DNA from: Stylophora pistillata
Lineage: Eukaryota
DNA: 64,000 nt
Assembly (NCBI RefSeq): GCF_002571385.2
Contig: NW_019218121.1
Span: 198,242-262,241, forward strand
Direction: 5' to 3'
In this document: piece by piece, positions 7,910 to 9,818 of the stretch
Layout of the letters: each line of letters starts with the position of its first letter
How positions within the stretch are numbered: position 1 is the first letter of the stretch
Position numbers and translations under genes: made by a program
The notes under the pieces: generated by a model
Told to the model about the DNA's origin: nothing
What the model saw: only the letters and a program-made list of their open reading frames with translations
Databases searched by the model: none

Positions 7910-9243
7910 CTTGTTGCTGCCACTATTCAGTGATCAGTTTCAGCTGGTAGCTGAGAAATGCGAGACTTAACATTCTCTCTCCCGTCAGACCATGCTAAAC
8001 GATAGATTATAAATACTTGCCTTATATCGAAACGATGAAACATAATTAATGCATTTTGATCGATTTTCGTTCACTTCAGGGAAAATCAACCATCAAAATT
8101 TCAGACCATGTTTCTTTATTTTTACCTTGAGTTACAACTGACAATGATTCCTTGCTTTCCAGGGTGTCCCTGCGACGTTTATATTTCGGTCTCCTTTCTG
8201 CATATACAGTGGAAAATACGCCCTTTTCCATTATAATATTGAAATAGCATTGAGCTAAATTTGATATAATTGTCGTTGATATGTTAATAGAATCCATAAG
8301 TTCCCATCGAAACTCTTAAACGAAACGCTTTGTAAATAAATGAAATACCACAGGAATTGAAGAAAAATCGGCCTGTAAAAGGAAGATTAAAGGAAAAGAA
8401 AGTTTCAGAAACACACCAGGAAGCTAATTTTCAACCTAACTTTGAACGCTCATCTGAATGGAAGCAGACAAGACATGTTTCAGCATTCTTTATTTTTTCA
8501 TTTAGCAACCTTAGAGGAAAAGGATAATGCCATCTCGTAACAATTTTCCTAATTTGTTTCTTTTAGCATGTTTACACGGAGGGCTTCCAATAAACAGTCA
8601 GTGCCAATTAAGATGGCGCTGAACATAAAAAGGGTCATCTTTACAGAGTCTTAATGGGGTGAACCATAAGCTGTAAAACGGCCAAAAAACTTTTAGCCGA
8701 CAAATTTTACCCGGTGAGTCATGAAAAGTAGTTAACCATCGGAAAAGCTTCTGTCGATAGTAATGGGAAGATAACCGCTAGGCGGAAATTGTAGCCGTAG
8801 GAAGAAAGCGAGAAGTCGAAAAGAGACCTTTAAATTATGATGATTAAGAACTTAAACCTATTCCATGACCGCAAACACGACTCTCTCTTTAATTTAAAAC
8901 GTATTTAATGCCACAAGAAATTACTTAAAGATGTTTCTGGAAAACCACATGTTCCCCTAGACTGGTACAAGGTGAAAAGTGATAAGATCAACATGTATGG
9001 GTTAGAGTTGAATGGTACCAGAAATGTTAATCGACATTACGACAACTTTGTGAGAAGCCAGTCTCTTCATCAAGCCACTCAATTTATTGAGGTATGGTGA
9101 CTGAATCCTTTTTTTTAAGTCGACAATTAGATTATCCGGCCTTTCCATTGATTTACACATAGTTATTATCGTTAATTCTTCAATTTATTTGATAGCTGAT
9201 AGATACCTTTAATTAAAATGATCATCTTAACAAAAGAAAGCTC

Positions 9244-9482
9244 GTATGATGCACGATCCTCGCAGTAGATAGCGCTTTTAAGCAATAGCGGAAATCAGAC
9301 CTGAAAAAAATCAGGTCTGTACGGGATTCGAACCACTGACCTCTGCGATACTAGTGCAGCGCTCTACCAATTGAGCTAACAAGCCAACTGGGAGCAGGCC
9401 GTTAAGTTGATTCGTAATAAACCCGTGAAAGTGATAAATCAGATACAATGAAATATATGAACTTCATATATTTCATTGTATC
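9244..9482 (-). mobile_element. tRNA-containing retroposon-like element, about one permuted monomer with a fold-back end
   Basis: 13-bp TSD CAAAAGAAAGCTC at 9231-9243 and 9483-9495. The empty site is in unit 2 (~21356). tRNA-like segment at 9314-9385. Terminal hairpin GATACAATGAAATATATGAA-C-TTCATATATTTCATTGTATC. Confidence 0.9.
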
Positions 9483-9818
9483 CAAAAGAAAGCTCATCAA
9501 GAGTGGAATTCTTTCCATATTTCTCTGATCAGATGGTCAATGATAGTCGATGCTAATCAGATTTGTTTCGGTAAAAATCACGAGGGCACTGCTATTTGGT
9601 TTCAAATACGTAACGCTGAGGTGGAAGTATAATTGTTTACAGAAGAATAAGAGTTTGTACCGCACTCGAAACACTTTGGTGCGTTTTCGCCGTTCAATCT
9701 CCTTAAAAGGACTATGTCTTTTCTGGGATTTAGTGTCTTCCTATCCTAATTACGGAAGATTGAGAGAGAATATCCCCTCTGAACAATTTTCCCAACTTGA
9801 CTTCATTTTGATTTTCAG

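Follow-up and report, generated by a model that had tools for sequence, protein, structure and literature searches.

A tRNA-headed 248 bp repeat of Stylophora pistillata as a probable ribozyme-free passenger of Penelope-like elements

How a short repeat that carries a tRNA, but no poly(A) tail and no coding sequence, comes to be inserted as partial tandems and fold-backs is the question raised by positions 9231–9495 of a 64 000-nucleotide stretch of the coral Stylophora pistillata (contig NW_019218121.1, positions 198 242–262 241; the whole stretch is referred to here as the window). A first-pass annotation had proposed a unit copied from a circular or multimeric RNA and inserted as circular permutations, with the tRNA fold and its processing by RNase P and RNase Z as the stand-in for a ribozyme. 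The element is real and recently active. Its mobilization by Penelope-like elements (PLEs) is very likely, and it is probably a non-autonomous PLE passenger in which a tRNA-derived head replaces the hammerhead ribozyme.

The repeat unit was defined as window positions 62034–62281 (248 bp, the period of the repeat in the window) and is numbered from the first tRNA base (t1), so that the monomer position in the window equals t + 9. ARAGORN and Rfam identify four tRNA-Thr(AGT)-like genes in the window, with a T7 run beginning 2 nt 3′ of the tRNA, and the window copies contain no poly(A); the internal tRNA, the adjoining T7 run, the period and the missing poly(A) are all as first annotated. At the gathering score Rfam detects no RNA family other than tRNA in the window, and a search of 60800–62500 with E values up to 10 returned only tRNA and chance hairpin matches. 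The anticodon differs among families (AGT, GGT and GGC), so the tRNA is not a decoder; this lack of conservation, together with T stems that contain non-standard pairs in the window copies, argues against a functional tRNA gene array. Searches with core patterns detected no hammerhead core on either strand of families A, B and C, and likewise no twister or hairpin core. Loose patterns for pistol and HDV gave scattered matches, which were treated as noise. The window copies contain no N-free ORF of at least 90 aa and do not carry the reverse transcriptase (RT) plus GIY-YIG of an autonomous PLE. Among nine related sequences, conserved hairpins fold in the RNA 3′ of the tRNA. One of these (t97–115) shows two-sided changes in four of seven pairs, while the stem around site A and the hairpin preceding site B (the two outer-end sites described below) are conserved without two-sided changes; the shuffle control used for these hairpins is generous, because the nine sequences are related.

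The insertions found in the window are listed in Table 1.

Table 1. Insertions of the tRNA-headed unit in the window and their flanking features (window positions)
Feature	Positions	Strand	Remarks
Left target-site duplication (TSD), 13 bp	9231..9243	+	Exact repeat of 9483..9495
Long arm, 0.93 unit, outer end at site A (t145)	9243..9473	-	
T7 run 2 nt past the tRNA, within the loop formed by a short palindrome	9304..9310	-	From folding
tRNA-Thr(AGT)-like head	9313..9385	-	Probable Pol III A/B-box promoter
Short inverted arm, ends at site B (t195)	9451..9482	+	Joint within the unit's own palindrome
Right TSD, 13 bp	9483..9495	+	
Empty target site in paralogous segment	21356..21368	+	13-mer present once, without insert
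Older inverted copy, related subfamily	49890..50111	.	Arms: minus from ~A (t153), plus up to near B (at least t187)
TSD, 12 bp	55132-55143 / 55212-55223		In a short TTAAC repeat
5′-truncated single arm (t89-146), 68 bp, ends at A	55144..55211	+	No tRNA
Left TSD, 15 bp	60859..60873	+	Partly microhomologous to the element
Long arm, 1.3 units, outer end at site B	60871..61192	-	tRNA 60993-61065
Short inverted arm, ends at site A	61185..61210	+	Hairpin 61170-61207; no TSD after it
Unrelated DNA, 282 bp, with the window's only EGF-motif exon	61211..61492	+	Captured host DNA or misassembly
Assembly gap, 496 N	61493..61988	.	
Inner part of inverted arm (t116-72)	61989..62033	-	Cut by the gap
Arm of 1.6 units, from 9 nt before the tRNA to site A	62034..62437	+	tRNAs 62043-62115 and 62291-62363
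Right TSD, 15 bp	62436..62450	+	Matches 60859-60873

The three annotated TSDs of 13, 12 and 15 bp are exact repeats (starting at 9231/9483, 55132/55212 and 60859/62436, respectively), and the insertion at 9244 is proven by the single uninterrupted 13-mer at 21356 in a segmental duplicate. The duplication concerned is in tandem (window ~2100–12400 versus 12400–23700, 88–95% identity); among its contents are long ORFs (594 and 786 aa) whose C-terminal parts are hydrophobic. Tandems of 1–1.6 units had been ascribed to all three insertions. Arms of 1.3 and 1.6 units are indeed present at 60874, but the copy at 55144 is a single-arm fragment and that at 9244 comprises about 0.93 unit plus a short inverted arm. 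Both annotated terminal hairpins are real: 9442–9482, with a perfect 20 bp arm, is formed by the arm joint in the unit's palindrome, and 61170–61207 has a perfect 17 bp arm but does not lie at a TSD-bounded end. An inverted copy at 49890–50111, for which no TSD was found, had been overlooked.

At 60859–62450, the 15 bp TSD pair is exact but encloses the EGF exon and the assembly gap as well as the arms, and no repeat connects 60871 with 61210; both arms nevertheless share the same rare alleles. The structure is either one insertion with a captured exon or a misjoin in the repeat beside the gap, the misjoin being somewhat the likelier. A perfect 32 bp inverted repeat derived from a TTTA microsatellite lies at 60511–60580, 280 bp upstream of the 60874 insertion. 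The copies at 49890 and 55144 lie within a large multidomain extracellular protein gene, the exons of which occupy the minus strand of window ~28000–57000; by eye, we take these exons to be lectin-like and laminin-G-like. Other repeats in the window include a 36 bp tandem repeat of about six copies (24875–25088) and a short dispersed repeat in both orientations (3712–3858, 8645–8689, 13670–13814 and 20765–20808), possibly representing MITE ends.

Every outer end in the window is a 3′ end in the sense of the tRNA, and these ends fall at two sites: 9243, 55211, 61210 and 62437 at site A (t145–147; monomer 154–156) and 9482 and 60871 at site B (t195; monomer 204). The copies had been described as starting at different points of the monomer; since the outer ends are fixed at A and B, a circular permutation of ends is unsupported.

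A metagenome scan gave seven related loci; L001 and L004 are inverted insertions that have an A and a B end and imperfect 13 bp TSDs, and L002 and L005 each consist of one arm terminating near A. At L006 (500–1760) both arms of a unit copy continue into inverted DNA, which we take, by eye and from its motifs, to resemble the terminal repeat of a hammerhead-type PLE; this unit may have travelled inside another PLE. Most copies came from a bin (G002) that was deposited as a bacterium and contains animal contigs (loci L012–L097), which is database contamination. Two families are present in it: family B, from another animal, with a 250 bp unit that shares ~72% identity with that of the window, and family C, with a 244 bp unit. 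The family C copy at L016 (2404–4305) has the anticodon GGC, a seven-unit arm plus an inverted arm and a 12 bp TSD, and lies inside an RT ORF. Among other scans of genome contigs, two yielded L008 alone and one yielded nothing, and three scans of viral contigs gave no hit. A further scan of genome contigs returned 72 bacterial loci of 80 listed. Of their 75 matching tRNAs, 74 are tRNA-Phe, and the similarity does not extend downstream of the tRNA; the head is thus not supported as bacterial in origin.

Nearly all of the end and TSD statistics below describe family B rather than the window's own family. The family B loci are the top-scoring matches (the best 40 of 69 candidates, plus a further scan), so that young and long copies are over-represented; three duplicate loci (L094–L096) were removed before counting. 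The insertions mostly consist of two arms placed back to back with their tRNA-sense 3′ ends outwards. The outer ends occupy two fixed sites, A at t~147 and B at t~195, which are separated by ~48 nt, and the inner ends alone vary. With A taken as t143–152 and B as t192–200, 29 of the 35 two-armed insertions are AB, none is AA or BB and six have one unclassed end; pairing in 29 of 29 classed insertions has a probability of 2 × 10−9 if the ends are independent. A further 13 single-arm or fragment clusters in the set were counted apart. The same A + B layout is seen in the window copies, in L001 and L004 and, with shifted sites, in family C. In sequencing runs of the window organism, the unit is left at 62238 (site B) by 45 contigs, which continue into long unrelated sequence, and joints with a strand switch are found in several places along it; site A was not seen among the loose ends listed from these runs. 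Two separate A + B insertions lie ~50 bp apart in an ATT microsatellite at L051 (1085–2040).

The arms range from 0.1 to 7 units in length, giving a partial-tandem organization. Fold-backs are inversions in which one arm is very short; perfect fold-backs are a minority and occur at the unit's own palindromes (L053, L054 and L059). An exact TSD of at least 8 bp is present in 28 of the 35 two-armed insertions and measures 12–15 bp in 24 of these 28, the full span being 9–17 bp; among 182 mismatched junction pairs used as a control, a score of at least 12 was reached by two. Of 56 TSD edges, 21 have the trinucleotide AAC no more than 6 nt away, compared with 17% of background 12-mers (P = 2 × 10−4).

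The form of the template was assessed from the inner ends and from the variants carried by individual units. The 66 inner ends of the 33 simple family B insertions are widely spread. Fifteen of them fall in t60–90, a region that spans the T-run palindrome, against 8.2 expected. Five fall at t238–240, 11–13 nt upstream of the tRNA, an interval fixed beforehand from 62034, L004 and L006; P is 0.001 for this preset interval and 0.21 for any 3 nt interval, so the cluster hints at a Pol III start. Divergence is 0.96% among the units of one insertion and 5.1% between insertions, which indicates one source per insertion, and all of the units of an insertion, in both arms, carry one haplotype. At 7 of 3063 sites a variant is present in some but not all units of an insertion. 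Two of the seven (in L024 and L040) were discarded as reference or alignment artefacts, leaving five credible unit-specific variants common to both arms, three of them in one older insertion. Within an insertion the T runs shift in length in blocks that both arms share (13, 13, 7, 7, 7 against 12 in the opposite arm; 11, 7, 7 against 10). Where neighbouring T runs are of unequal length (family B, L019–L043), the inner, later copied unit has the longer run in eight of nine steps.

Arms of up to 5–7 units support the part of the original proposal that called for an RNA longer than one unit, or for repeated passes over the template. The block-wise T-run changes and the shared unit-specific variants weakly favour a linear multimer over a monomer circle, and we regard the linear form as somewhat the better supported. 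The alternative that the unit is excised by RNase P or Z, ligated into a 248 nt circle and reverse-transcribed in a rolling, retrozyme-like manner is unlikely. It would account for the near-identity of units within an insertion and for the long seamless arms, would avoid repeated read-through of the T run and has a precedent in the circles formed by coral retrozymes (PMC7761336); it could, moreover, still use a PLE enzyme and the same A and B start sites. The shared unit-specific variants and T-run blocks are, however, not easily derived from a single monomer circle, and the five ends just upstream of the tRNA are what a linear 5′ end would give. None of the 66 inner ends lies at t1–3 (the RNase P site) and one lies at t72–76 (near the RNase Z site), so that the idea of tRNA processing in the part of a ribozyme finds no positive evidence here; a true circle would leave no ends at the tRNA boundaries, and their absence therefore fits a circle too.

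An ordinary LINE-dependent tRNA SINE, with the tandems and inversions produced by slippage and occasional twin priming, is very improbable. A tRNA-derived head, a length of ~250 bp, variable TSDs and truncated 5′ ends are what such a SINE would have. Against this stand the lack of a simple-repeat tail, the seamless joints of the unit tandems, the predominance of inversions among the family B loci (35 two-armed versus 13 single-arm or fragment clusters) and, above all, the two alternative 3′ ends with their strict A + B pairing, which largely refute this reading; the insertion anatomy points to a PLE instead of a LINE partner. A DNA element (a MITE with long inverted ends or a rolling-circle, Helitron-type element) or a satellite spread by recombination is the least credible reading, for although inverted ends, DNA palindromes and tandem arrays would suit it, the two ends differ by a constant tail, the TSD length is variable, arm lengths and inner joints are unique to each insertion (0 of 35 share both inner ends) and each insertion has its own haplotype in every unit of both arms, a pattern that fits the inverted structure arising afresh at each insertion.

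On the RNA side, contigs from RNA runs cover the unit (contigs cannot reveal circles), and the tandem joint was found in both DNA-like runs and in one of the two RNA runs of the window organism. CpG-type variants make up 3–11% of the depth in the DNA runs versus at most 1.6% in the RNA runs, while subfamily variants are level; this difference could reflect transcription of young copies but was set aside, because contig filtering of rare words yields the same pattern. The summed depth of ~10 million versus ~130 for single junctions is no copy number but hints at thousands of copies in the window's organism. We lean slightly towards the tRNA serving as a Pol III promoter. The weak step in this model is the run of T6–T13 that adjoins the tRNA: it should halt Pol III before A and B, which lie beyond it, and arms cross up to five such runs. 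Minority read-through, long templates made by Pol II or RT switching between terminally redundant RNAs would then be needed.

Returning to the PLE passenger, four anatomical features expected of PLE insertions are seen: an inverted 5′-truncated copy, a one-sided tail, partial tandems and a PLE-like TSD. The original view of a non-autonomous retroelement that is not a classical SINE and has Penelope-like anatomy is thus borne out by the insertion structure. The available text of PMC8557442 describes PLEs with partial tandems, an inverted truncated copy and a tail of 30–40 bp, often at one end; the tail of ~48 nt found here exceeds this usual length. PLEs in the G002 bin, which gave 113 RVT_1 and 65 GIY-YIG matches, provide a direct comparison. 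Twenty of its RT/GIY-YIG loci served as a control set, in which 11 inverted-repeat pairs were examined and a TSD was found in four. L067 and L071, both inverted, have ORFs that match RVT_1, with GIY-YIG just below the cut-off, TSDs of 13 and 12 bp and one-sided tails of ~32 and 34 nt, respectively; together with L075 they have TSDs of 12–13 bp, like those of family B. These 20 loci, a small part of a host genome, show no meaningful similarity to the unit, and five unit motifs likewise found nothing relevant in the consensus files published for Naiad, Chlamys and Hydra; no autonomous partner emerged from these searches.

Biochemical data suggest how such insertions might arise. The available text of PMC11167929 reports that a PLE protein, purified and predicted to form a dimer, cleaves and extends AT-rich DNA on both strands and begins reverse transcription from two positions inside the RNA, between which the tail lies; that in vitro study leaves the second-strand steps unvalidated. 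PLE ends may also capture intron-containing host DNA, and their inversion joints are palindromic (PMC3846280, available text). In the mechanism that we propose, a tRNA-sense RNA of more than one unit would be made, probably by Pol III from ~10–13 nt upstream of the tRNA with occasional T-run read-through or, alternatively, by Pol II read-through. A PLE RT/GIY-YIG protein, probably as a dimer, would bind the hairpins around A and B, and both target strands would be nicked 12–14 nt apart, AAC being weakly preferred at the nick. Each 3′-OH would then prime cDNA synthesis at an internal site, A for one and B for the other; the two cDNAs would be joined through short microhomology, often at unit palindromes, giving a fold-back if one arm is short, and repair would leave the TSD and the one-sided tail. 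The fullest version of this proposal is tentative and falls a little short of an even chance: a PLE-dependent, Pol III-driven, ribozyme-free SINE with several families in corals and possibly in other animals, inserted in a single concerted reaction. In it, opposite strands would be nicked by the two subunits of a PLE dimer, each of them obliged to use a different RT start site, A on one strand and B on the other.

The repeat bears on how PLEs produce tandem, inverted and tailed insertions. The strict A + B pairing, which implies that the two priming events are coupled and asymmetric, is the most valuable result in this respect and makes the PLE insertion mechanism directly testable. A passenger of 250 nt with many young copies offers both a large in vivo record and a minimal substrate for the PLE enzyme. 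The concerted A/B reaction, if true, would explain the PLE tail and the inverted ends in general, and a PLE-dependent SINE could also carry host exons. On the practical side, tRNA gene counts in corals may be inflated, and short-read assemblies broken, by the repeat. Neither this family nor a tRNA-headed, ribozyme-free PLE passenger was found described in the literature searched, which covered few subscription papers, and the available text of PMC12070523 and PMC11067881 does not describe the element; a repeat this abundant may well already have a Repbase or Dfam name.

The comparisons that follow draw on the available portions of the cited papers. The closest anatomy is that of the GIY-YIG PLEs (Penelope/Poseidon, Neptune, Hydra, Naiad and Chlamys; PMC8557442, PMC11167929, PMC3846280), which share with the unit the partial tandems, the inverted 5′-truncated arm, a one-sided tail between two internal RT starts, palindromic inversion joints, TSDs of ~9–15 bp and the possible capture of host DNA with introns. 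The unit differs from them in having no ORF, a length of only ~250 bp, a tRNA-derived head, no hammerhead core, a longer tail and no sequence match found to a PLE pLTR. Two kinds of PLE passenger are comparable in being non-coding, multicopy and head-to-tail, namely the Chlamys MRC1 type (PMC8557442), which is also hammerhead-free, and a short non-autonomous Penelope in Heliconius (PMC6685494); the Chlamys passengers differ in that their 3′ sequence is generally common with the autonomous family, and a tRNA head is not mentioned for either in the portions available. Metazoan non-LTR retrozymes are likewise non-coding tandem units of 150–400 bp that occur in corals and other animals (PMC7229834, PMC7761336), and they have been proposed to be non-autonomous PLE derivatives (bioRxiv 10.64898/2026.07.22.740005, PMC7229834, PMC7761336); they are defined by a type I hammerhead and circular RNA, whereas the coral unit has a tRNA and no ribozyme core and, lacking the hammerhead, is not a retrozyme. 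The Schistosoma repeats Sm-alpha and Sj-alpha (PMC6765202, PMC2770079) are likewise tRNA-derived and tandem; their apparent Pol III transcription, multimeric transcripts and inflation of tRNA gene counts are probably matched by the unit. In Sm-alpha, unlike the coral unit, a hammerhead frees the monomers, and the available text of the two papers describes neither a PLE tail nor A + B pairing for it. Finally, classical tRNA SINEs, for which SINEBase sets out a head–body–tail layout and a LINE partner (PMC3531059), also have a tRNA-derived module, a length below 700 bp, no autonomy and a variable TSD; the unit departs from them in its tandem and inverted insertions, its two 3′ ends, its lack of a simple-repeat tail and, apparently, of a LINE-derived 3′ end, and would add a ribozyme-free case with a partner other than a LINE to the tRNA-derived retroposons.
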